This document shows positions 807-48,607 of a stretch of DNA of 64,000 bases, piece after piece (the stretch's first letter is position 1; each line of letters begins with the position of its first letter). The translations under genes were made by a program, and so were the position numbers. Under the pieces are notes generated by a model. It had not been told where the DNA came from. It did no database searches and worked only from the letters and a program-made list of their open reading frames with translations. Source of the stretch: an uncultured virus (IMG/VR IMGVR_UViG_3300031993_000020) (lineage: Duplodnaviria > Heunggongvirae > Uroviricota > Caudoviricetes); the IMG/VR virus record IMGVR_UViG_3300031993_000020; one strand, 5' to 3'.

Positions 807-3800
807 ATGAACAAACAAACTTTAAAGAACGAACCGTATTACATTGGATTAGATATTGGAACCAGCTCTGTGGGTTGGTGCTGTACTGATTCTTCCTATA
901 AGTGGCTAAGATACCATGGGAAAAATATGTGCGGAGTGCATCTGTTTCCAGAAGCTAAAACGGCTGAGGACAGACGCTTACATAGAAGCAATCGACGCAG
1001 ACTACAAAGGAGAAGAAAACGGATAGAATATCTCCGTGAAATTTTTGCTGATGAAATTAATAAAGTTGAACCTCAATTTTACAGTGCATTGGACGATAGT
1101 CAGTTCAAAAAGACTAGTCTAGCTGGACTTATGAAACAATATCCGACCATTTTCCATCTTAGAAAAGCCTTAATAGAACAACCGGATATTAAATTCGACA
1201 TAAGGTATATTTACCTTGTATGTGCTAATATACTCAAGCACCGTGGAAATTTTCTATACCCCAGTCTATCAGTAGATAATGTAGTTAACGGCGCATTCGA
1301 GCAAAACTTGAATGATTTTGTGGATACTGTAAAAAATGTGTACAATATAGACATTAACAGTAAAGGACTAGATGAGATAAAAGATGCGCTTTTAAGAGGG
1401 GACTCAGAAGCTCTACAAATAGCGTTCTGGGGAAATAGCGACAAAAAAGATAAGTTGCACGAAGCTCTCTGTGCGACTGTTACAGGAAAAACTCCAAGAC
1501 TTCAGGTACTGCTCTCTAGTGCAAGATATGAAATAGACCCAGAACAGTTAGAATCAGTAAAAAAGATCAAATTAAGCGATGCAAATTTAGAGGAAAAGCT
1601 TCCAGAGTTAGAAGCGATTACTGGAGAAGTCTATGATGTATTTCTTGCGGCTAAGAGGCTCTACGATTGGAGTAAGATGGGGCAAATTATCGGTGAGCAT
1701 AAAAAATATTCAGATGCAATGATTGCAAAGTATAACGCACACAAGAAGAATCTGATACTTTTAAAACAGTTCATAAAACAGAAGGCTCCTGATAAATATG
1801 ATGAGGTGTTCAACAAGCGAGAATCTAATGATTCTTATGATGCTTGGATAGGAAGATCAGTTGCCAAACCAAATAAGAGTACTTGCGATTGGGAAGAATT
1901 TACCAAGGCCATAAAAAAAGTGCTGAATATTGGTAAAGACGAGCCACAAGACCCTGCATTGGCAAAGCTAAAGCAAGACTTGGAAAACGATGATTTTTTA
2001 GGAAAGCAGCGTACAGGTAAAAACGGGATAATTCCATACCAACTACACGAATATGAGCTGAATATCATTCTCGAGAATGCGGCCAAGCACTACCCGTTTT
2101 TAAAGCATGTAGACAGTGATGGCTACAGCAATTTAGATAAAATAAAAGCGCTTGTTACCTTTAAACGTCCATATTATGCAGGAACTGGGTTCATGACTCC
2201 TAAAAAAGGTCTTGAAAAGAAGCAGATTTATCCGTGGAATTTTTTTGATATAGTAGACTTGCCTAAAAGCGCGGAAAAATTTATTGTATCTATGACCAAG
2301 CAATGCCGTTTTATACCAACCTGCAAAGTACTACCGAAACAGTCATTGCTTTATTCGGATTATATTGCCCTTGACCATATCAATTCTTTGTCGATTTTAG
2401 GGAAGAAATTATCCTCAGGACAGAAAGCTAAAATATGGGAACTGTGTCATCAGCAGTTGGTTGTGACGTTCAGTCGTATCGCTAAAGCTATAAATATCGA
2501 CAAAAACGATCTGGGAGGCCTCGATAAAGAAGCTAGTATAAGCCTAAAATCCTACCACGATTTTAAAAGGATTTTGGGTGATAATTTGTGCGAGCACAAC
2601 AAAGACTTTATCGAAGCATGTATATATGATATTACGATTTTCAAAGAAGAAAAGGCGGAAATCTGTAAGCGTATCAAAGCTCATGCTGACGAATATAGTT
2701 TAAATCTATCTGAAGAACAGATTCAAAAGATTTCACGCCTAAACTACAAGGACTGGGGTAGCTTCTCCTGGGAACTATTTACGGAAATTAAAGACGACAA
2801 TATTTCGATTATAGAAGCCCTAACCAACGGAACTGACAATTTTATGCAACTTCTAAGTAAGAGATACAGCTACTCTAAAGCTATTGAAATATATAATCAA
2901 CAGCACGAGGTTACTAAAACAATAACAAGGGCTGACATTGTTTCATCTTTATGTGCTTCTGCTCCCGTTAAAAGAGCTGTGAAAGTTACGCTAAACATAC
3001 TTGACGACATCATCAGACGTTCAAAAGGACTGCCGAAAAAAATCTTTGTTGAGGTTCCTCGCGAGTCATCAGAGAAGAATGCGAGTAAAAAAGGTAAAAA
3101 GACAGTCTCTAGAAAAGCTAGGCTGACAAAAATATATAACATAAAAGGGAACCCTGAGTTAAAAGAACTTTACGAAGAGTTAGAGACATGTGATGAGTCA
3201 ATGTTAAAGAAAGACAAAATCTATTTGTACTTTTTGCAACTCGGTCGCGATATGTATACAGGAGAAAAGATTCATTTTGCTGCATTGAGAGATAGCAATA
3301 GTAAGTGGGACGTGGATCATATATATGCGCAGTCGAGGGTAATTGACGATAGTCTGGACAACAAAGTCTTAACCTTGAAGAGTATCAATAATGACCTTAA
3401 AAAAGACAAATGGCTGTTTGAGGTATGTCAGTCTATTAATGGTTTTGAACAGGCGCGAGAGTTATGGAACAAATTGTATAAACTTGAGTTACTGAGTTCG
3501 AAGAAAAGGGAAAAATTGTATAGGACAACGCCTCTTTCTCCGGACGAACTGGCGGAGTTTAATAGCAGACAGCTCGTGGAGACTAGACAATCTGCTAAAG
3601 CCATTTGTGATATTCTAAAGGAAATATATACTGATACAAAGGTCGAGATAGTCTATGTTAACGCTGACAGAGTGTCTGACTTTAGAACATATTTTAGCTA
3701 TGCTAAGTGTCGAGCTGTGAACGATCTACATCACGCACGAGATGCTTATCTCAATATTATTGTAGGTAATATTTGGTACACTAGGCTAACGAGCAATCCG

Positions 3801-4820
3801 GCATATGTTTTTGGCCATGAAAAAATTAATGTCCAACTTCATACGAACAACAATACGGGTCTGATAGATAAACCAGTGGCTCGAGGTGGGGTTACTGCTT
3901 GGACGTATGACTCACGACAAATCGTGGATAAATGGATGAGCTGTAATCAAATTCAGGTAACGAGGAAAATGATTGAGAGAACGGGGGAATTTTATAGTCA
4001 GAACCCCATTAAGGGTATTAAATGTAATAACAAGGTGCAAATACCAAGAAAGACCAGTGAACCACGATTAGCTGATACAAGTAAATATGGAGGATATGAT
4101 AATCAGAAAATCGCATATTTTGCTTTCATAGAATATACCAAAGAAGCAAGCCGAAGGAGGACATTTGTACCAATACCGGTCCGTCTAATCAAAAAGACTA
4201 CTCTTGACAAGTATATAAGTTCTTTAGGATATAAGGATGTCAGAGTTATCTTACCGAAGGTTTTGATTGGTACAAAAATATACATAGATGGATATCCGAC
4301 ATGGATTACAGGGAAGACAGAGGATAAATTCACAGTCGATCAGTGCGTACAGCTGATTTTAACCCAGGAGCAAGAGAGATACATCGAAAAGATTATAAGA
4401 TATTTAAAGACACAACAGAAGAATAAAAAGGAGAGCGACGATTCGCAGGAACAGACAGAAAAAGATCCGGGGATTATTGATTCTGATACACTGTACAAAT
4501 TAGTTAAGGAGCTAGTTCGCAAGTTTGCTGACGAGAATGGCATATTTAGTAAGAGACCGAATAATTTCTTTAAAGGTAAGGTTGAAACTGTGCTCAATGA
4601 ATTCAAAACGAATTCAGTTGCGAAACAATATGTTGTCGTAAAAAACATCGTACAATTTTGTCAAGGGAGCGGAATTGCTGATTTTAGTGGTATTGGTGGG
4701 AAGAAAAATGCAGGTAGTATAAGTATTAAGATGGATATTACTGATTGTAAATCCGCCTATATTCTTCTTGAATCATCAACCGGACTCGGTGTCGAAAAAA
4801 TCGATCTCCAAAAAAGATAA
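807..4820 (+). CDS. cas9: Type II (II-A-like) CRISPR endonuclease Cas9, 1337 aa
   Basis: RuvC-I IGLDIGTSSVGW (D16), Arg-rich bridge helix RRLHRSNRRRLQRRRKR, YPTIFHLR, KHRGNFL, RuvC-II IFVEVPRE, HNH DVDHIYAQS...DDSLDNKVL...N, RuvC-III HHARDAYL, KYGGY. RBS GAGG upstream; tracrRNA and array adjacent. Confidence 0.98.
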   Translation: MNKQTLKNEPYYIGLDIGTSSVGWCCTDSSYKWLRYHGKNMCGVHLFPEAKTAEDRRLHRSNRRRLQRRRKRIEYLREIFADEINKVEPQFYSALDDSQFKKTSLAGLMKQYPTIFHLRKALIEQPDIKFDIRYIYLVCANILKHRGNFLYPSLSVDNVVNGAFEQNLNDFVDTVKNVYNIDINSKGLDEIKDALLRGDSEALQIAFWGNSDKKDKLHEALCATVTGKTPRLQVLLSSARYEIDPEQLESVKKIKLSDANLEEKLPELEAITGEVYDVFLAAKRLYDWSKMGQIIGEHKKYSDAMIAKYNAHKKNLILLKQFIKQKAPDKYDEVFNKRESNDSYDAWIGRSVAKPNKSTCDWEEFTKAIKKVLNIGKDEPQDPALAKLKQDLENDDFLGKQRTGKNGIIPYQLHEYELNIILENAAKHYPFLKHVDSDGYSNLDKIKALVTFKRPYYAGTGFMTPKKGLEKKQIYPWNFFDIVDLPKSAEKFIVSMTKQCRFIPTCKVLPKQSLLYSDYIALDHINSLSILGKKLSSGQKAKIWELCHQQLVVTFSRIAKAINIDKNDLGGLDKEASISLKSYHDFKRILGDNLCEHNKDFIEACIYDITIFKEEKAEICKRIKAHADEYSLNLSEEQIQKISRLNYKDWGSFSWELFTEIKDDNISIIEALTNGTDNFMQLLSKRYSYSKAIEIYNQQHEVTKTITRADIVSSLCASAPVKRAVKVTLNILDDIIRRSKGLPKKIFVEVPRESSEKNASKKGKKTVSRKARLTKIYNIKGNPELKELYEELETCDESMLKKDKIYLYFLQLGRDMYTGEKIHFAALRDSNSKWDVDHIYAQSRVIDDSLDNKVLTLKSINNDLKKDKWLFEVCQSINGFEQARELWNKLYKLELLSSKKREKLYRTTPLSPDELAEFNSRQLVETRQSAKAICDILKEIYTDTKVEIVYVNADRVSDFRTYFSYAKCRAVNDLHHARDAYLNIIVGNIWYTRLTSNPAYVFGHEKINVQLHTNNNTGLIDKPVARGGVTAWTYDSRQIVDKWMSCNQIQVTRKMIERTGEFYSQNPIKGIKCNNKVQIPRKTSEPRLADTSKYGGYDNQKIAYFAFIEYTKEASRRRTFVPIPVRLIKKTTLDKYISSLGYKDVRVILPKVLIGTKIYIDGYPTWITGKTEDKFTVDQCVQLILTQEQERYIEKIIRYLKTQQKNKKESDDSQEQTEKDPGIIDSDTLYKLVKELVRKFADENGIFSKRPNNFFKGKVETVLNEFKTNSVAKQYVVVKNIVQFCQGSGIADFSGIGGKKNAGSISIKMDITDCKSAYILLESSTGLGVEKIDLQKR

Positions 4821-5021: not shown

Positions 5022-5050
5022 ATAAAAGATAGATTAAGTCACAGTTCTCG

Positions 5051-5490
5051 GTTTGAGAACCGTGATATTTCTAAGGGTTCCAATACTGTCTGATAACGAA
5101 AAAGGTAAGGATCATAGTTTGAGAACCGTGATATTTCTAAGGGTTCCAATACATGTTGATCACACTAGGCACAACCTCTTCTGTTTGAGAACCGTGATAT
5201 TTCTGAGGATTTCAATACTCAAGTTTGAGAACTGTGATATTTCTGAGAGTTCAAATCCCCTTGTTTGAGAACTATGATGTTTCACTAGAGGTCCAATACT
5301 GAAAATAATATAGAGAAAAGTAACCCTAGTTTGAGAACTGTGATGTTTTTTTAGGGGTCTCATCCTCTAAATAAATCCAACTTATCATCTAGCTCTTGTT
5401 TGAGAACTGTGATGTTTGTTAGAGTTTCAACACGTGCAAACATGCCCCGTGACGAATACGCGGGTTTGAGACCTGTGCTATTCTTATCAG
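5051..5490 (+). CRISPR. CRISPR array, 36-bp repeat GTTTGAGAACCGTGATATTTCTAAGGGTTCCAATAC, 8 progressively degenerate repeats
   Basis: Repeats start at 5051, 5117, 5183, 5223, 5263, 5329, 5398 and 5464. Spacers are 30, 30, 4, 4, 29, ~33 and 30 nt. R1 and R2 are identical; later repeats diverge mainly in the 3' half. Confidence 0.95.
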
Positions 5491-5534
5491 AAAAAAAAAT
5501 ATAGCTCACCCCGGTTTCCCGAGGCGAGCTATAT
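5491..5534 (-). terminator. Intrinsic terminator facing the CRISPR array
   Basis: Minus strand ATATAGCTCGCCTCGG-GAAA-CCGGGGTGAGCTATAT then a T-run. The G-U pairs and GAAA tetraloop only work on the minus strand. Confidence 0.85.
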
Positions 5535-5556
5535 ACTTGTCATTTTAATTTTCCGA

Positions 5557-5605
5557 GTTTGAGACCTATGATGTTTTTTTAGTTTAAGACCTGAGATTTT
5601 CTCAG
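5557..5605 (+). repeat. Two truncated trailer CRISPR repeat remnants
   Basis: GTTTGAGACCTATGATGTTT (5557) and GTTTAAGACCTGAGATTTT (5582) match the 5' half of the repeat. Confidence 0.7.
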
Positions 5606-41506: not shown

Positions 41507-43270
41507 TCATTGGATTTGGTCCGCAGAACCATATAAATCCAACAAAAGATCAATTGTTTTTACTTCGGATAAATCACTTACCGTATATCCGATAGATACT
41601 TGTGCTTTATTTTGAGACCGGTCTTCTCTGTAGGAACGAATAAACAATTCTGGGTCATACCCAAAACGTCTACTGAAATAATACGTTAACGTCTCAATTA
41701 AATCATAAAAATACATCATATTCTTCGTCGAATCAGAAGAATTTGTCTGACTGTTTACGCATGAAATTACTAGCATATCGTAAACGTAATATAGCTTATT
41801 CTTCAATAGTGTCTTGATTCTCTGAAAATTGATGTATTCAAATCCTACTCTCGGTTTATTAACGAAATATGGCAGATTGTCATAATCTGGATCCTGCTCA
41901 GTTTGTACAATATCATTCAAACTGACATTCTTACTCCCCGCTACTAACATTTTCAGTATCAGCATCTTCGTATTTAATCTATCAGTTCTATAAAGATACT
42001 GTGAATTATCAAAATAGCAAGTCAGATTATTATCCTGTAATCCTATATAATTACAGAATTTTATACACATATTGTTAATATTATAGAAAGTGTTATTCAT
42101 TCTCTGCTGAATCTTTAAAGCGTCTTCTTTGTTCAGCCCGAGATCTGGCTCTAATACTATATTAGCGTTAAAATCGTATTCTTCGTCTACATATTCCTTG
42201 AGAAAATCAAAAGCCGTCAGATAATCATCTAGTGTGATTTTCTTCTGGTCGTGTAACTGCCTTAGCTTAAATGTTCCTATAGGAAACTCATCAGTATACG
42301 GTTCTACGCGAATATATCGAGATTTGTAATTAATCAATGAGTATAGCTGTGATAGCGAAACGTCTGAAAAATTCTCCGTTACCGCTATCGTATTACCATT
42401 CTGGTATTTATATACAGCAGCATAATAAGTCTGCGATTGATAAGAAAACTCTACGGCTAAATCCTCTAGGTCAGAATTATATTTACTGTAAATATTCAGT
42501 ATCTTCTCTTTGTACTGAACATTATTACAATACTGAGCTAAGAACACCTCATCGTACTGCATAGGTATTCTTCGAGGATCACTTTCAAGCCCCGGCTCTT
42601 CTTCCGGAACTACAAATTCGTAGGGATACATAATGTGCATATAGCCATCAGATGTATATGCACAAACATAAGACTCCTCTTGAGATAGAATTCTCATCAG
42701 AGTCTGTACCGAAGCCTCTGGATTATTCTCATCGTACACAAATTCTTTGTCTGCACCATAAGCGTAATTTATAGAAGAGATTAACGGCTGTCCGTTTGCC
42801 TTTGTTCCTACATAACAATTGGCTGCTTTGCCGTTAATTAAATGCTCAAACAAAGCATAGCGACCTGATGTCAAATCAGATACCTTAAATTTGATAGCAA
42901 GGTGTTTGTCGCTATGCAGTGTAGTATTGATTGGCTGTACGTCCAATTCTAAATCAAACCAGGAACCCTTATAGTTCCCTTCGCTATCCTTGTACACACG
43001 TACAGTCTCAGGATATTCACATTTTCTTACGTTATAAGCAAGAACATTATAGCCGTAGCTTAGTACCTGCTGAGCTTGAGCTAAACTCTCTGAATAATCA
43101 ATGTACCTGTCATTGAAATAATACTCAAAGAGACTTCTGCTCGGCAGATACTGAAGCGTGCTTTTAGAAAAATTGGATTTGGAGTCGACAAGTGTCAGCA
43201 CCGTTAACATGTTTGGATCCGAAGTAATAACTACCGGATGTAAATTCACTTTTGTATTTACTGTGTACAT
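41507..43270 (-). CDS. Possible divergent second sheath-like protein
   Basis: SRSLFEYYF...AQQVLSYGYNVLAYNV resembles the sheath N-term SQKEFLDKY...AYVTLANNPVYLMR. C-term NKAQVSIGY resembles NKLVISLY. Confidence 0.4.
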   Translation of the reverse strand: MYTVNTKVNLHPVVITSDPNMLTVLTLVDSKSNFSKSTLQYLPSRSLFEYYFNDRYIDYSESLAQAQQVLSYGYNVLAYNVRKCEYPETVRVYKDSEGNYKGSWFDLELDVQPINTTLHSDKHLAIKFKVSDLTSGRYALFEHLINGKAANCYVGTKANGQPLISSINYAYGADKEFVYDENNPEASVQTLMRILSQEESYVCAYTSDGYMHIMYPYEFVVPEEEPGLESDPRRIPMQYDEVFLAQYCNNVQYKEKILNIYSKYNSDLEDLAVEFSYQSQTYYAAVYKYQNGNTIAVTENFSDVSLSQLYSLINYKSRYIRVEPYTDEFPIGTFKLRQLHDQKKITLDDYLTAFDFLKEYVDEEYDFNANIVLEPDLGLNKEDALKIQQRMNNTFYNINNMCIKFCNYIGLQDNNLTCYFDNSQYLYRTDRLNTKMLILKMLVAGSKNVSLNDIVQTEQDPDYDNLPYFVNKPRVGFEYINFQRIKTLLKNKLYYVYDMLVISCVNSQTNSSDSTKNMMYFYDLIETLTYYFSRRFGYDPELFIRSYREDRSQNKAQVSIGYTVSDLSEVKTIDLLLDLYGSADQIQ

Positions 43271-43300
43271 GCCTACTCCAAATAAAGATTACGAACCGAT

Positions 43301-44826
43301 AAGGCTCTGTTTGAAAATCTGATTGATAGTCAAACTTCATACTCTTTCGAGTAATAGCTAGAACCCTTAGCTTCTACTCGGTTAGACTTTTTAAAGTTAT
43401 ACCCAAGTTTCTTCGGTTGAATTACTTCAATATTTTCCCTGTATTTGATAGGGATATCGAGTTCAGAGTTAAATTTCTTCATGATCTGATAACTTCCATT
43501 TACATCTGCATTGATCGAGATACCTTGATTACTCAAAAAGAGACCTCTATACTTACGTCTCTTTTTGTTATAGTTCTCTTTTATTGGTAGTTCTTGATCT
43601 AAATACGATGTACCGGAAGTATAACTTTCTTCTACCTCAACTACACTGATTCCTAGCAACTCTGCTTTATAAGAGATCATATGTACCAGTCTATTAAAGG
43701 GAATTTCTACAAAATTTTGATTATTCTTAGAACCAAGATTACATTCTTGTTTCCAACCTACATTCTTCCCTATGATAATAGTACATATACTGTTCTCTTT
43801 AGCTTTATTGACTAAAAATCTTGATGCTTGATGAAGATAGTTATGAGTCAGATTGTTTCTCTTGAAAGTTGTCCTCAATATTCGATTTGTTGTGTCTCTC
43901 TTATTGAATGTTTTTGCAAGAGAAGCCAAATCTGAAATCCTTTTGTTGTAGTATTGGTTGATTGATTTTAAAGGTCTTCCATTAATAATAAAAGGTGATA
44001 GCTCAGTATTTGATGTTACGGTAGCGAGGTTATTGATTCCTAAGTCTATAGAGTAGTATCTTCCATTATCTTTGAATTTTGGTAAAGTATCTTTCTGATA
44101 GTTGCATCTTATCATAACACCTTCAGAACAAACTTTGAGAGATACTGACGTGATCTTATGCTTTACTCGAAGCTTAATGTCTTTGAACTTTGCAAGAGTA
44201 ACAACATCTTCGTTTTGATGGAAGGAGTCTCCAACAAAAGAAATCCAATTCCTACCCTTCTCTTTGTCTAAATATCTAGGAGTTCTTGGTTTACCTTCGA
44301 ATAATTGAGGCTCTTCTTGAAAAAGTTTAAGAGCCTCAAAGTAAGAATTCCAATTGCTACAGATTTGCTTTAAGCATTGTTGACCTACTACTGTACCTAC
44401 TATTTTAAACTCATCTGTATACTTCATATACCAAGCTAAGAAGTTATAGTTTATAACCGGATTCTTCTCTGAAGATAGCAAAGACATCTTATGATTTGGT
44501 TTTTGATTGTATTCTTCGATGGCTTTGTTGGTATCTTCAAAAAGCTTTTGTTGAAACTCATCTAAAGACTTATCTTTCTCAAGATTATACTTTATTTGAG
44601 AACATTGTCTAATAAAATACTGAGTAGCATTGTAAAGATTTTTACTTTTATACCAGTAATCATCAACAGACTTCCATAGAGAGGAAGTCTTTGATGTTTT
44701 CTTGATAAAGTGTTCTTCAACAAGATTCATCAAAGACCTCCTTTCTATAGAATATTATTCTAGATTATCTGTTTTTTTGTCAAGCGTTTGTTAAAAAAAA
44801 ACAATCATTATTTCAAACAGAGCCTT
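43301..44826 (-). mobile_element. Solo tnpB element bounded by terminal inverted repeats
   Basis: AAGGCTCTGTTTGAAA-ATC-TGATTG (43301-43325) versus the reverse complement of 44802-44826, AAGGCTCTGTTTGAAA-TAA-TGATTG: 16 bp perfect, 22/25 overall. No transposase inside. Confidence 0.7.
43330..44733 (-). CDS. tnpB: IS200/IS605-family RNA-guided nuclease TnpB (467 aa)
   Basis: SKNLYN, RuvC-I SIDLGINNL, NGRPLKSINQYYNK, IIIGKNVGWKQ, YKAELLGI, EESYTS, RuvC-III INADVNGSYQI. AGGAGG RBS. Confidence 0.93.
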   Translation of the reverse strand: MMNLVEEHFIKKTSKTSSLWKSVDDYWYKSKNLYNATQYFIRQCSQIKYNLEKDKSLDEFQQKLFEDTNKAIEEYNQKPNHKMSLLSSEKNPVINYNFLAWYMKYTDEFKIVGTVVGQQCLKQICSNWNSYFEALKLFQEEPQLFEGKPRTPRYLDKEKGRNWISFVGDSFHQNEDVVTLAKFKDIKLRVKHKITSVSLKVCSEGVMIRCNYQKDTLPKFKDNGRYYSIDLGINNLATVTSNTELSPFIINGRPLKSINQYYNKRISDLASLAKTFNKRDTTNRILRTTFKRNNLTHNYLHQASRFLVNKAKENSICTIIIGKNVGWKQECNLGSKNNQNFVEIPFNRLVHMISYKAELLGISVVEVEESYTSGTSYLDQELPIKENYNKKRRKYRGLFLSNQGISINADVNGSYQIMKKFNSELDIPIKYRENIEVIQPKKLGYNFKKSNRVEAKGSSYYSKEYEV

Positions 44827-47800
44827 CAGTAATCTGGTCCAAAGAAACAATATAATGATCAATCAGAATATAATGAATACTCGGTGTAAAGCTCGCATAC
44901 AGAGAAATTACGAGTTTGTTCTGCTCGATAACAGAAGTAGGATTATTAGAATCGTCACAAACAGCCATATACTGAGCAGGAGTATAAGCTTTACCGTTAA
45001 ATAACCGATCCTGAATCGCTTTATTCACATTCTCCTGTACTTTATCACGTAATCTCTTAGTATTTAACTCATGCAGATAATTAACAGCTAATGTCTGTAC
45101 CACGTGAATTGCAGCATTCGTCATACGAACATTCTGCTCTTCAAGCATATAGCTCTTAGCATTCTGTAACGTATAATTCTGGTTCACATAATACGGAGTA
45201 GTGATCCCGCCTTTCAGAGTACAAACACGATAGTCAAGCAGAGTCTCTCGAGCCTGTTTCTTCCAATTCTGAATCAGATTAACAGTACCAACTGTACCAT
45301 GATTCAAACCAGCAATAGGAGCAAATTCCGCAGAACCGCTTCGTGAGGCTTCAACCATCTTATTGATACATTTGTAGCTGCCGGGCATTTCTGCAGAGAA
45401 CGTACCAACAGGGATACGATCAGCAATAGCCCAAGCACGAGCTTCAAAATTATCAATTTCAGTAGCAGAGATATAATTGATAACGTCTTTGTAATTCGTA
45501 TAAGCAGGAATACTAACCGGATAAACTGCCCACAGCTTCTTAGTCAAAGCGTTAATCGCTTTAGCTAAGTTCGGAGAACAGATACCAGCGTCTGAAATAA
45601 TCTCGTATTGAATGCCATCTTCATAATCAGTAATTTTCTGAATAGCGTCGATAGCAAACTGATCGTCATACGCAGGAATAGATAACGCTTTACCAAAAGC
45701 AGGACTATTAAAGCTAGCCATCGGTTCAGCTTCAGTATTCAAAGGTACGACTTGGAAATAATCGCTCTGAACTCGAGTATACCACTGATCAATACCATAG
45801 CCATCAGTTACACCAGGAACAAACGACATTGTCCAATCTTCAGTAATAATACCGGACTTATAATTAAAGTGTAAGTCAACGATCTTAGTATCACTGTCAT
45901 AGGTGTAATTAAACCGCATTAAAGCAGTGCTACACGGGAATTTAGAAACGATAGCGAAAGTATCCGAAGGATTCTGTGTCACTACAGACGTATAAATATC
46001 CATGTGACAATTTGAGCTGCATTCACCAGCATGAACATCCAAAGAAGAATCCGTGCTAATGAATTGCCCATTATACAGATATACATCAGACATCAACAGC
46101 GCTTTTTGTAACAAGGCTAAGAATTCAGTCTCATCACAGGGACCATCAGAGAGTTTCGCAATTTTCGGAGCGATTGGAGCTTCACCAACATAGTAAAGTG
46201 TATCACCGACAGTAACCTGAATCTTATCAAATTTAACTTTCTCGTCATTGTTCTCAGCACTGATAGAATAGTAATAAGTAGGCACACCGTTACCGACATC
46301 AGCGTCAGCAATAAGCGAAATAGCCGGAGAATCTGTATTCACATCGGCGGTACTGTAAGAAGGAACAAAGAGGTCCAGACTACCATTAAAGGCAACATCA
46401 TAGACGCCGCTCGGGACATTAGTACCGGGGATCTGCTCTTCACCGCCAATATAGGCTGCACCATCTGAATTGAGAATATCTGACAAACAAGAAGTTACAA
46501 ATTCTACGGAAGTACCGCAGGACTTAACAACGGTTTTGAGATTATCATCATAGCCGAGAGCAGACAGATAGTTCACATTCTTAGCCAGATACTCATCAGA
46601 GTTAAGAAAATGGAACGTATGACCAGCAATATCAGCAGTCATGTCAATAATAGGAGTGTCAAACCCAACAAAAGTACCAGTGCCTTCTTCTGTACTCCAA
46701 CTAACTACATGATTAAAATTAGACGGAACAGCGCTTTCTTTGATTGTAGAGGTAACAGGAGCAATAAATACTTTAACAACCCCGTCTTCCTCGGTAAATT
46801 CAATAGCGGTTTTTCCGAGATGAGATACAACATAACCTTCAGTTGTTTCAACAATACTATCATTATAGTCGTCAGGCACACCGTTAGAAATATACTGATT
46901 ACTATTGCTAAGGTCGAAGTATTTGATAACTCCGCCCGGATATTTAGCGATCATCTTCGGACCATAAATATCGCCGCTGTCGTAATTATGAGAGAACCGA
47001 ACTTCGTATTCGTCTAGTTCATCAGCATCAGGATAATTACTGCCGTCAATATGGTTACCATCACCAGAATAATTAGCGACGGTAAAGATGTTCTGTTTAG
47101 CTAACGCAGAATCGATCCTATTCACTAAATGTTCAATATCCTCTCTGTCGATATAGCCGTCGTGATGATAGCGAAGAATATCATAACTGATATCGTTTTC
47201 ACCAATAGCAAAATAGTAATAAGCGTTTTTATCTAGAATAATATCGCCGACTTTAATATCTGAGATGTACGTACAGAGGATATTTTTGTTGTAATTCTGA
47301 TCTTCTAAACCGCCATTATTCATTACGCTCGCATCGAGTTTACCGCGAATACGGGAATTAGTTAAAACGCCCAGCGTACCTTTTTCGATTGGCACATTGG
47401 CATAGATCTTAATCCAGTCTTCTTCGGTAAAGTAACCGAGCTGTGCGTCAGTGTCCCCATCGCGAGTAGCCCCACCTTTACGAAGATTGACAGGAGCAAC
47501 AGATTTGACAAGCGGATTTGATGGCCCATTCTCCTGAAAATTCCATTGACCGTCATAAAACCATGATTTACTATAGAACTCTACACCACGACATTTACAG
47601 GTCGCACCCCAAATACGCGGGAAATTGTACTGTTCATTGCTGCTGTGGAGAGCCTTTGGCTGTTCCCATTCGGTAAGAGGTTCTCCAACGGTTCCCCAGT
47701 GGTTAGGATTATTATGAAAATTAATCTTAATACCAGACCCATCTTCAGACATAATGTCCACGCCCTTGAGAGAACTCAGACAGTTCTCTTTACCAAGAAC

Positions 47801-48607
47801 GCAGAGACCTTCCCAGACGGGATTCATCGGCTCGAAGTAAATAGGCGTATTGTTCGCAGTATTGCTCGGAACGTTAGCCGGAGTATTCAGAAATTCATAT
47901 GTGTTACCATTAATAGCAACTGAATCTTTAACTTTAAGACTCGCTTCGCCATCGTTGACATTTCTGAAGGACATCGTGGAGAAGGAGTTCATCTTCACTG
48001 ATTCGTCGAATTTACCAGTATTCGTAGCTGTCAACGGTACACGAGAGATAATCTGAGTATCAGAAGTCGACAGAATACCTGCTTCATTGCCGGTAGGACC
48101 ATTGCTGTCAGCTTTCTTAATCATAATATCATCGACGAGTTCAGAGAAAGAAGCTTCATGCTCTTCTCCTGGATCCTCGCTATTTACGTCACTCCAGGTA
48201 TTGCTTCCTGAAGTAATAGAATACCCAGAGCTATTATCAAGACTCAAATCGATCTTGAAATTCATATAATCGCGGATAATCTGATAATCAGCATCAAACA
48301 ACCAAGTGGTACCTTCGGAAGTCATACCTTCATGTAAAGCAGAAGGACAGGCTCTCATTAAGTACACTGGATTATTTGCTAACGTCACATACGCGAACTG
48401 AGCAGATATATGATCATTCGGCATAATCTTGCTGCTGGTCATATATTTGTCTAAGAATTCTTTTTGACTCGATACTCTAGTTTTCTCAATAGGACCTGCA
48501 GGAGTGTAAACCGGCATTACGATATTGTAGCCAGTATCCGCAGGAACCGGTAATAAACCACCACTTAAATCATAAACGTTAGATTCAACAAAAGGCTCCA
48601 AAGCCAT
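44813..48607 (-). CDS. Contractile tail sheath protein (1264 aa)
   Basis: N-term AGPIEKTRVSSQKEFLDKY. C-term APIAGLNHG...QNVRM...YLHELNT...VCDDSNNPTSVIEQNKLVISLYASFTPSIHYI, typical of the sheath C-domain. Confidence 0.9.
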   Translation of the reverse strand: MALEPFVESNVYDLSGGLLPVPADTGYNIVMPVYTPAGPIEKTRVSSQKEFLDKYMTSSKIMPNDHISAQFAYVTLANNPVYLMRACPSALHEGMTSEGTTWLFDADYQIIRDYMNFKIDLSLDNSSGYSITSGSNTWSDVNSEDPGEEHEASFSELVDDIMIKKADSNGPTGNEAGILSTSDTQIISRVPLTATNTGKFDESVKMNSFSTMSFRNVNDGEASLKVKDSVAINGNTYEFLNTPANVPSNTANNTPIYFEPMNPVWEGLCVLGKENCLSSLKGVDIMSEDGSGIKINFHNNPNHWGTVGEPLTEWEQPKALHSSNEQYNFPRIWGATCKCRGVEFYSKSWFYDGQWNFQENGPSNPLVKSVAPVNLRKGGATRDGDTDAQLGYFTEEDWIKIYANVPIEKGTLGVLTNSRIRGKLDASVMNNGGLEDQNYNKNILCTYISDIKVGDIILDKNAYYYFAIGENDISYDILRYHHDGYIDREDIEHLVNRIDSALAKQNIFTVANYSGDGNHIDGSNYPDADELDEYEVRFSHNYDSGDIYGPKMIAKYPGGVIKYFDLSNSNQYISNGVPDDYNDSIVETTEGYVVSHLGKTAIEFTEEDGVVKVFIAPVTSTIKESAVPSNFNHVVSWSTEEGTGTFVGFDTPIIDMTADIAGHTFHFLNSDEYLAKNVNYLSALGYDDNLKTVVKSCGTSVEFVTSCLSDILNSDGAAYIGGEEQIPGTNVPSGVYDVAFNGSLDLFVPSYSTADVNTDSPAISLIADADVGNGVPTYYYSISAENNDEKVKFDKIQVTVGDTLYYVGEAPIAPKIAKLSDGPCDETEFLALLQKALLMSDVYLYNGQFISTDSSLDVHAGECSSNCHMDIYTSVVTQNPSDTFAIVSKFPCSTALMRFNYTYDSDTKIVDLHFNYKSGIITEDWTMSFVPGVTDGYGIDQWYTRVQSDYFQVVPLNTEAEPMASFNSPAFGKALSIPAYDDQFAIDAIQKITDYEDGIQYEIISDAGICSPNLAKAINALTKKLWAVYPVSIPAYTNYKDVINYISATEIDNFEARAWAIADRIPVGTFSAEMPGSYKCINKMVEASRSGSAEFAPIAGLNHGTVGTVNLIQNWKKQARETLLDYRVCTLKGGITTPYYVNQNYTLQNAKSYMLEEQNVRMTNAAIHVVQTLAVNYLHELNTKRLRDKVQENVNKAIQDRLFNGKAYTPAQYMAVCDDSNNPTSVIEQNKLVISLYASFTPSIHYILIDHYIVSLDQITEGSV

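Follow-up and report, generated by a model that had tools for sequence, protein, structure and literature searches.

Insertion sequences of the IS1595 family, reportedly set out by Siguier, Gagnevin and Chandler in 2009, are probably the source of the element considered here, a tnpB gene between terminal inverted repeats (TIRs) that abuts the tail-sheath gene in a 64,000-nucleotide stretch of an uncultured tailed phage (Caudoviricetes; IMG/VR record IMGVR_UViG_3300031993_000020; the whole stretch is called the window below). IS1595 members usually make 8-bp duplications and encode a zinc finger and a DDE_Tnp_IS1595 domain, according to the summary of the family in PMC8101967. TnpB associated with DDE transposases has been described in six branches, all with inverted terminal repeats and with the TnpB 3′ end less than 250 bp from the end of the element, and solo TnpBs inside DDE-type ends were also published in 2023; in the passages of that study devoted to such elements, transposase-less copies keep their ends and are presumably moved in trans, and the DDE-6 branch is IS630 (Altae-Tran et al. 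2023, PNAS, PMC10691335). A 2026 review, in its passages on this topic, gives the DDE partners of TnpB as ISL2, IS630, and IS1031 and describes eukaryotic DDE transposons, often non-autonomous, in which Fanzor/TnpB is a passenger nuclease between inverted repeats with duplications (PMC13565253). The IS200/IS605, IS607, and IS1341-group elements share the nuclease family, the expected guide-RNA logic (an RNA that extends from the 3′ part of tnpB to flanking DNA), and a presumed part in homing or retention, but IS200/IS605 and IS607 elements have asymmetric hairpin ends, make no duplication, and rely on a Y1 or serine enzyme.

The window element belongs to a kind already published and is a further example of it. 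Its TnpB lies within symmetric, DDE-type inverted ends, in contrast to the hairpin ends of IS200/IS605 and IS607, the distance from stop codon to end (27 nt) is well within the range of the DDE-associated branches, and its relatives, like theirs, include transposase-less copies that keep their ends and were presumably moved in trans. It differs from the DDE-6 branch in that its relatives are of the IS1595 rather than the IS630 family, that it is carried by a phage, and that it lies right against a structural gene; the Fanzor/TnpB transposons differ in their eukaryotic and giant-virus hosts and in belonging to other transposon superfamilies. The term IS1595 is absent from the main text of PMC10691335 and stands once in its supplement text, within a list of transposase profiles, and no published link between tnpB and IS1595 was found, by titles and abstract openings, in the literature pairing both words. 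The relatives share with the IS1595 family, as summarized in PMC8101967, the zinc ribbon and DDE_Tnp_IS1595 domain, ends that start with GG, and 8-9-bp duplications; the window copy shares the GGCTCT ends and departs from the family in having neither transposase nor duplication and in carrying tnpB as a passenger. We posit, at a probability of about three in four, that the element is a non-autonomous derivative of the IS1595 (DDE) family with tnpB as its passenger. Because the transposase is absent from both element and window, it could be at most a non-autonomous member.

The boundaries of the element are well marked. A repeat search and the list of open reading frames (ORFs) bore out the view, taken earlier from the sequence alone, that tnpB stands by itself between 25-bp TIRs: the two 25-nt arms, spaced 1476 nt apart, are complementary at 22/25 positions (88%) and at all 16 of the outermost ones, and tnpB is the sole ORF of at least 60 aa filling the interval between them. 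At up to two mismatches, the 64-kb window has exactly two copies of the outer 16-mer AAGGCTCTGTTTGAAA, one on each strand, against a shuffle expectation of 0.09 matches, two matches being reached in 1 of 100 shuffles. The repeat starts 94-96 nt before the tnpB ATG on one side and ends 27-29 nt past the stop on the other, and the element measures 1,526 bp (43301-44826) when the extra paired AA/TT bases are included.

The family assignment rests on the company that related TnpBs keep in rumen Clostridia. In a FastTree phylogeny of 139 distinct full-length TnpBs, the window protein is sister to all 21 IS1595-linked entries (SH-like support 99), and it has an N-terminal insertion of about 50 residues (alignment columns about 58-130) in common with 5/5 clade members in the alignment; this insertion is missing in 10/11 other aligned sequences, the remaining one, L009, having a sequence-similar insert at the same place without being IS1595-linked. 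Window and clade also have a common layout, in which the end is followed by a sigma-70-like promoter just inside, the gene or genes, and a right end soon after tnpB. The predicted protein at L083:1909-2979 matches DDE_Tnp_IS1595 (PF12762) at 1.6e-12 and has a zinc ribbon; when it was used as a tblastn query against 240 loci and the window, full-length IS1595-type transposases (the homologues of the query at 48-97% identity) were located just upstream of tnpB in eight loci (L083, L170, L173, L164, L092, L082, L162, L174), the copy in L167 was frameshifted, and partial remnants were present in 13 more loci, mostly as internal deletions, some of which leave about 58 N-terminal and 32 C-terminal codons; the remnant in L086 is cut by the contig start.

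The ends of these relatives, taken as the points where homology among copies in different contexts stops, read GGCTCTTTTAAAC... (also written GGCTCTTTTAAACTTCATAGTTGAC...) on the left and, in reverse complement, GGCTATTTACC... / GGCTATTTACCAG... on the right, or GGCTCTTTTCAAC... in L174. The window end equals the L163 left end at 11/16 positions, including the first six, and GGCTCT is also how the left end starts in 14/18 unique related elements for which both ends were found; other end hexamers among the 18 are GGCTCA, GGGTCT, GGCTGT, and AGCTCT, and the left end of L174 is GGCTAT. A scripted count that reduced 23 loci to 18 unique sites with both ends, 17 of them evaluable, found target duplications at eight (four perfect 8-bp, three perfect 9-bp, and one matching at 8/9) and none at the other nine, with 0/18 in an adjacent-8-mer control; ATA, or more generally xTA, stands directly 5′ of the duplicated bases in this clade. 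Duplications flank full units of 2.59-2.78 kb (L164, L170, L082, L174) as well as deleted ones of 1.80-1.94 kb (L163, L166, L168, L171), so even the deleted units, which lack a transposase, have transposed, and only a transposase acting in trans can have moved them. Another, internal end-like site (...TTAAAGAGCC, at 43 nt past the tnpB stop) was noticed in L083:4329-4431 and in the same region of L082, L162, L174, and L163-L173; the hairpin that follows it differs in sequence among L083, L082, L162, and L174 while its pairing is kept. The short right end of the window element seems, by this comparison, to correspond to the terminal module only.

These relatives also refine what had been proposed from the sequence alone. 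Assignment to a DDE type such as ISL3 is supported as to DDE but not as to ISL3, since the transposase next to a related TnpB in L083 carries PF12762 (IS1595) and not an ISL3 domain; ISL3 ends also read GGCTCTT. Of the idea of a non-autonomous TIR element that captured tnpB, the non-autonomous state, the tnpB-only content, and the GGCTCT ends stand, whereas capture by a bare TIR shell is improbable: the relatives are composites of transposase and tnpB that lose the transposase by internal deletion, and the window tnpB was probably not acquired by such a shell.

Four public runs from bovine or other gut material (X1-X4), whose contigs were aligned to positions 42300-45900, bear on both the reality of the insertion and its mobility. 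Contigs from X2 and X3, which represent one sample (S2) of a study other than that of X1, bridge both element junctions, so the insertion is not a single-sample assembly artefact; X1 may be the source sample of the window itself and is thus not independent evidence for the occupied site. One X1 and one X4 contig join the right end of a similar tnpB copy to unrelated sequence, with homology starting at 43299 (X1) and 43305 (X4), within 4 nt of the outer end of the repeat, and with the X4 piece agreeing at 225/230 letters. X4 also contains a variant of the phage whose flanks are 95-99% identical. These junctions support the right boundary and show other insertion sites. As to whether the true terminus is AAGG/CCTT or GGCTCT, the other X1 copy keeps CCTTAT and the X4 copy diverges after CAGAG. 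A search for further copies of the repeat and a cognate transposase, suggested beforehand, thus succeeded in part: copies of the right end turned up in the X1 and X4 contigs, with no transposase in the window and, among the matches listed, no IMG/VR copy that has one.

Several observations weigh against an IS1595 origin. The window branch is long (0.69) and was flagged as unsafe by the tree tool, identity of TnpB to the IS1595-linked clade is no more than 39-41%, and the pairwise maximum, 46%, is with L001, a member of the large sister group in which loci read as IS607-type also fall. No IS1595 transposase was found in the 64-kb window by tblastn or by Pfam searches of the 42 other ORFs. The window shows no 8-9-bp duplication: the octamers that flank the element, TTACTGAA before its left end and TTATCGGT after its right end, agree at 4/8 positions, and none of 8 or 9 bp appeared when the boundaries were moved by 0-2 nt. 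Duplications are commonly missing among the relatives as well. The left flank of the window element is also without xTA, the motif found ahead of the duplication in those relatives. A 23-nt repeat pattern (CAATCANNNTTTCAAACAGAGCC) had no match in IMG/VR; a 15-nt pattern (GGCTCTGTTTGAAAW) matched at least 120 stretches, but among the matches listed none had an adjoining TnpB or IS1595 gene or a properly oriented second end, and we take them as chance. Among the IMG/VR matches listed, no element combines the window's own repeat with a transposase. The canonical RuvC-II Glu is absent from the window TnpB. The X1-X4 contigs contain no empty-site joint that skips the element; the single joint seen, from 43965 to 44430 across 461 other letters, comes from a diverged tnpB copy and not from an excision. 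The proposed check for empty alleles in related phages yielded none, since no pattern match obtained with the sheath C-terminus (IMG/VR, JGI metagenomes) or with the 17-sequence sheath alignment (IMG/VR) encodes a relative, and a blastn search of 50,697 phage records with a 3.6-kb query returned only tnpB, as a 200-nt match at 68% inside the gene in four Prevotella Lak megaphage records.

The tnpB product is a recognizable member of its nuclease family. It matches Pfam OrfB_IS605 (PF01385, 3.3e-18), the Cas12f1-like TNB domain (PF07282, 1.4e-10), and phrog_506 (1.5e-30). A profile of the family alignment matches 20 distinct PDB sequences at E ≤0.001, including 8j3r (5e-11) and ISDra2 TnpB 8bf8 (8.4e-8), the strongest being TnpB-like IS605 OrfB and Cas12f nucleases and the weaker ones other Cas12 types; a PDB search with the single TnpB sequence gave no match. 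D229 (IDLG), E368 (VEESYTS), and D409 (NADVN) are invariant in a 17-sequence alignment, and the canonical RuvC-II position is Gly in 17/17 (IIIGKN, within a stretch IIIGKNVGW that has no conserved acidic residue). This combination of Gly with an invariant E368 resembles the "RIIr-5" rearrangement, in which Glu is replaced by Gly at RuvC-II and another Glu compensates, and the four usual zinc-finger cysteines, absent from the window TnpB, are lost in some TnpB branches too (PMC10691335). By likeness to RIIr-5, the window TnpB would be an active nuclease. No relative above about 48% identity was found in IMG/VR, in JGI/ENA metagenome contigs, or among genomes sampled at one per GTDB species, the best lying at 40-48%, and those with the best E-values are proteins of 442-453 aa from rumen and gut Clostridia (Blautia, Saccharofermentans, Ruminococcaceae, "Clostridiales Firm_14"). 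A C-terminal extension of about 45 residues (...NIEVIQPKKLGYNFKKSNRVEAKGSSYYSKEYEV; window 43330-43470, minus strand) is not present in the relatives; its DNA aligns with their non-coding post-stop region, so the overlap between coding sequence and presumed guide-RNA scaffold is larger than usual.

The left repeat has become part of the sheath gene. The C-terminal part of the sheath ORF matches phrog_23 "tail sheath" at 4.1e-12, and the ORF ends ...ACT GAA GGC TCT GTT TGA, of which GGCTCTGTTTGA, holding the last three codons and the stop, lies within the upstream arm, in agreement with the earlier statement that this arm encodes the end of the sheath ORF. All 16 sheath homologues, long proteins of 923-1137 aa from metagenomes, stop 1-5 residues past a conserved L-D/S-Q, with unrelated residues, and none ends in EGSV, which agrees with Gly-Ser-Val-stop having come from the repeat; the closest, P0002, is encoded on a 29.6-kb contig, is 81% identical over the last 364 residues, and ends LDQITTNE. 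The arithmetic of the empty site drawn up in the sequence-only reading is correct, since excision of GGCTCT...AGAGCC joins GAA to TTATCGG and yields LSVRNLYLE and a TAG 2 nt before the ATG at 43270, but the end so restored, ITELSVRNLYLE, runs 12 residues past L-D-Q, 7-11 more than in any of the 16 homologues, and is unlikely to be ancestral. With no visible target duplication, the empty site is not to be rebuilt by simple removal of GGCTCT...AGAGCC. Removal of 44824-43298 (1,527 nt, a multiple of 3) instead brings GGT TCG TAA (43297-43289) into the sheath frame and gives ...ITEGS followed by the stop, 18 nt before the next ATG; this end fits both the lengths of the homologues' C-termini and the neighbouring intergenic gaps of 4-27 nt, and it is a candidate for the ancestral one. 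The genes in this part of the window are all on the minus strand, tightly packed, and in the standard bacterial code.

Downstream of the coding sequence, the last 178 nt of the element fold at -42.3 kcal/mol (z -3.08; 0/200 shuffles as good) and can be aligned in part to the region that is conserved after the stop codon in the IS1595-linked relatives. By analogy with known TnpB biology, this stretch would be the scaffold of an omegaRNA; no Rfam family was found in the window. Locally, the right end folds at -13.5 kcal/mol (z -2.19; 5/200 shuffles as good), and the left end is no more stable than its shuffles (z +0.50; 128/200 as good). The repeat does not vary among copies, so the guide is expected to start only after it, at TTATCGGTTCG...; the predicted guide read from the right flank is TTATCGGTTCGTAATCTTTA, of which the first 16 nt, searched for at up to three mismatches, occur nowhere else in the window.

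Upstream, tnpB appears equipped for its own expression. Promoter-like sites of the kind listed in Table 1 are about as frequent in the region as expected (9 found versus 7.7). The 5′ hairpin of the tnpB mRNA is predicted at -42.9 kcal/mol, compared with -19.6 ± 3.0 for shuffles (z -7.81; 0/200 as good), and pairs the Shine-Dalgarno sequence AAGGAGG (44743-44737) and the ATG (44730-44728) with codons about 13-21; the repeat search returned it as an inverted repeat as well. Hairpins that damp translation are known from transposase genes, e.g., those of IS200 and IS10. The predicted structure is probably a translational brake on TnpB, one that would hold the protein low despite transcription arriving from the strongly expressed structural operon.

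We propose the following history and mode of action. A full unit of IS1595 transposase and tnpB would have undergone internal deletion, with the bare 1.52-kb tnpB cassette as the end point of decay, and the cassette would move only if an IS1595-type transposase supplied from elsewhere, by the host or another phage, recognized its ends. TnpB would be expressed from the element's own promoter, held down by the hairpin over the ribosome-binding site, and would bind an RNA that extends from the tnpB 3′ end through the right repeat, with the guide continuing into the flank. The complex could then cut element-free copies, for instance in co-infecting relatives, upon which repair would copy the element in; such homing or retention is the accepted role of TnpB. 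The element would have landed at the end of the sheath gene or been trimmed to it, so that the left repeat now gives Gly-Ser-Val-stop; either clean insertion followed by trimming or arrival by recombination may account for this. If so, a rumen jumbo-type phage displays the end state of a stepwise decay series that can be traced in rumen Clostridia, and the last codons of an essential structural gene can come from the repeat of a cassette lying tightly against it. For annotators, a tnpB between GGCTCT-type inverted repeats is not to be filed under IS200/IS605. Nothing here overturns current understanding.

A clearly unlikely alternative, compatible with an IS1595 origin rather than exclusive of it, is that tnpB has by now become fixed in the phage as a free-standing, RNA-guided nuclease that serves homing or the killing of competitors, in the manner of the T4 Seg/Mob endonucleases, with the repeats as relics of its arrival. 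The lack of a target duplication and of a cognate transposase in the window would suit such a gene, as would its own predicted promoter, strong ribosome-binding site, and elaborate predicted translational hairpin, the intact ORF with D229, E368, and D409 conserved, and the X2/X3 contigs that bridge both junctions; homing between co-infecting phages is, moreover, a role that the 2026 review gives, in its relevant passages, to such nucleases (PMC13565253). The outer 16 nt of both repeats are nevertheless still perfect, which argues for recent transposase use or arrival, and the same end on other flanks in X1 and X4 implies recent movement. We regard it as very improbable that the element is instead an ordinary tnpB-only element of the IS200/IS605 or IS607 type (IS1341 group), with an inverted repeat that is there by chance or only as a piece of the guide-RNA fold. 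The Pfam label OrfB_IS605 points that way, the inner right repeat forms a hairpin with the stop-codon region, and L001 belongs to a sister group in which tnpB of L013, L019, L025, L031, L035, and L036 follows what we read, from its motif, as the C-terminus of a putative serine recombinase. Yet the loci read as IS607-type (L013, L019, L031, and others) fall in the other half of the tree, while the tree and the N-terminal insertion place the window TnpB with the IS1595-linked clade. The element has no second ORF that could be a Y1 or serine gene, and its ends are symmetric, forming a 22/25 inverted repeat that begins with GGCTCT, the end of DDE-type units that make 8-9-bp duplications. IS200/IS605 elements are described, in the relevant part of PMC13565253, as having hairpins at both ends and no TIRs, and the left end of the window element, as noted, folds no better than shuffles.

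Two further proposals concern the repeats themselves. That they are halves of a pre-existing hairpin, such as a terminator after the sheath gene, into whose loop the insertion occurred, we consider hardly credible. Highly expressed structural genes do often end in hairpins, and the outer 10 nt of the arms, when joined, form a perfect 10-bp stem around TTGAA, but the arms stay complementary for 25 nt, deep inside the element, EGSV is not the ending of any of the 16 sheath homologues, the right half occurs on other flanks in X1 and X4, and GGCTCT is the transposon end of the family. The sequence-only reading had also raised autoregulation: were the scaffold to end at TTTCAA, the guide would be ACAGAGCCTT, and TnpB would bind the left repeat and regulate its own promoter. 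The 10-nt match on which this relies is real, but trivially so, because ACAGAGCCTT lies inside the constant repeat and the match is the inverted repeat itself. At least its first five bases (ACAGA), and all ten in the X1 contig, recur where the same end joins unrelated flanks, whereas a guide is by definition variable flank; in two related subfamilies, homology among copies extends to the outermost repeat base. The left copy, besides, lies 5′ of the -35 box (44783-44778) and not over promoter or start, and ten nucleotides fall short of the roughly 16-20 nt of known TnpB guides. The proposal is thus scarcely tenable, and we retain the guide in the flank and, for the element as a whole, the origin from an IS1595-type unit.

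Table 1. Positions of the element, its predicted parts, and the adjoining genes in the window
Feature	Position	Strand	Remarks
Mobile element GGCTCT...AGAGCC	43303..44824	-	1,522 bp; bounded by the inverted repeat; terminal GGCTCT shared with left ends of IS1595-linked tnpB elements
Left-end (tnpB-upstream) TIR	44802..44826	-	contains sheath codons GGC TCT GTT and stop TGA (44824-44813)
Right-end TIR	43301..43325	-	end 27 nt past tnpB stop; inner UCAAAC pairs with GUUUGA overlapping the tnpB stop
tnpB	43330..44730	-	466 aa; ATG at 44730, stop 43332-43330; alternative ORF start TTG at 44733
Sigma-70-like promoter TTGACA-18-AATAAT (11/12)	44754..44783	-	consensus match only; between left repeat and tnpB
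Predicted 5′ hairpin of tnpB mRNA	44672..44752	-	about 24 bp, near-perfect; fold prediction
Predicted omegaRNA scaffold (tnpB 3′ end through right repeat)	43303..43480	-	fold and partial alignment with relatives
Predicted guide TTATCGGTTCGTAATCTTTA	43283..43302	-	flank directly 3′ of element; from the IS605/IS607 rule and passages of PMC10691335
Tail-sheath-like gene	44813..48607	-	1264 aa; C-terminus ...ITEGSV and stop, completed by the element
Candidate ancestral sheath stop TAA	43289..43291	-	GGT TCG TAA, in sheath frame if 44824-43298 removed
Next structural-operon gene	41507..43270	-	587 aa, no family match; GGAG ribosome-binding site in the 32 nt between element and ATG

A second, unrelated-looking subfamily of phage TnpBs, 403 aa in length and represented by 47 loci in IMG/VR and metagenomes, is likewise bounded by inverted ends, which read GGTAACTATATACC...GGTATATAGTTACC. 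Its repeat begins 78-86 nt upstream of the ATG and, on the other side, closes about 31-34 nt past the stop (up to about 46 nt in 406-aa copies), and homology among the copies ends exactly at the outer repeat base. Perfect 8-bp duplications are present at 13 of 28 unique sites, with none in the control, and 12 of the 28 are without duplication. TAA was seen directly before the 8 bp at the left end in 24/28 unique sites (L042-L080, L138-L157), whether or not the right flank repeats them. One left flank may be accompanied by differing right flanks (L042/L045/L046; L055/L056/L144), so the sequence on their right-hand side is evidently unstable, and nine further loci without a left repeat (L043, L048, L050, L065, L066, L071, L078-L080) have one common upstream context.

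With more doubt than conviction, we put forward the idea that in DDE-type tnpB elements the target choice of the transposase and the recognition motif of the nuclease have co-evolved, such that the guide would begin with the duplication, TnpB would cut the empty alleles of co-infecting phages, and repair would reshuffle the right flank. The idea starts from the trinucleotide fixed just 5′ of the duplicated bases in both related subfamilies and from the identical left flanks with differing right flanks. If this were true, cut-and-paste transposons would act as RNA-guided homing elements and drivers of phage mosaicism, and the missing duplication and repeat-supplied sheath end in the window would be the scars of such an event. 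As natural insertion sites with a duplication and a 5′ TAA or ATA, the related loci could serve to predict the recognition motifs of DDE-linked TnpBs for later testing.

Other loci noticed in the course of the analysis concern RNA-guided nucleases and the host. A full-length Cas9 of 1337 aa is encoded at window positions 807-4820 on the plus strand, with Pfam matches to the REC lobe (3.5e-103), the PAM-interacting domain (5.1e-42), HNH, RuvC, and the bridge helix; it is followed at 5048-5603 by a CRISPR-like array of about ten repeats (GTTTGAGAACCGTGATATTTCTAAGGGTTCCAATAC), mostly with a 66-nt period and decaying towards 5600. Gene and repeats together make this a type II CRISPR-Cas locus, here within a phage-like window; neither cas1 nor cas2 was seen among the ORFs scanned in the window. 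The phage host is more likely a Firmicute than the Paludibacteraceae of the metagenome-assembled genome that holds the sheath homologue P0003, because the closest bacterial TnpBs are those of rumen Clostridia and the genes use GGAG-type ribosome-binding sites. Finally, in other phage contigs of IMG/VR (L016-L018, L022-L024, L026, L028, L033, L034, L037, L038), at least two copies of a repeat of about 36 nt (GTTTTAGAACYATGTTAATTTAT..GGTAATAAACC), with unique spacers of about 30 nt, lie about 150 nt upstream of TnpB-like genes of 409-433 aa. Eighteen such proteins form one clade with support 100, and the arrangement of the repeats suggests phage-borne miniature arrays, either type V CRISPR or guide-RNA ones.

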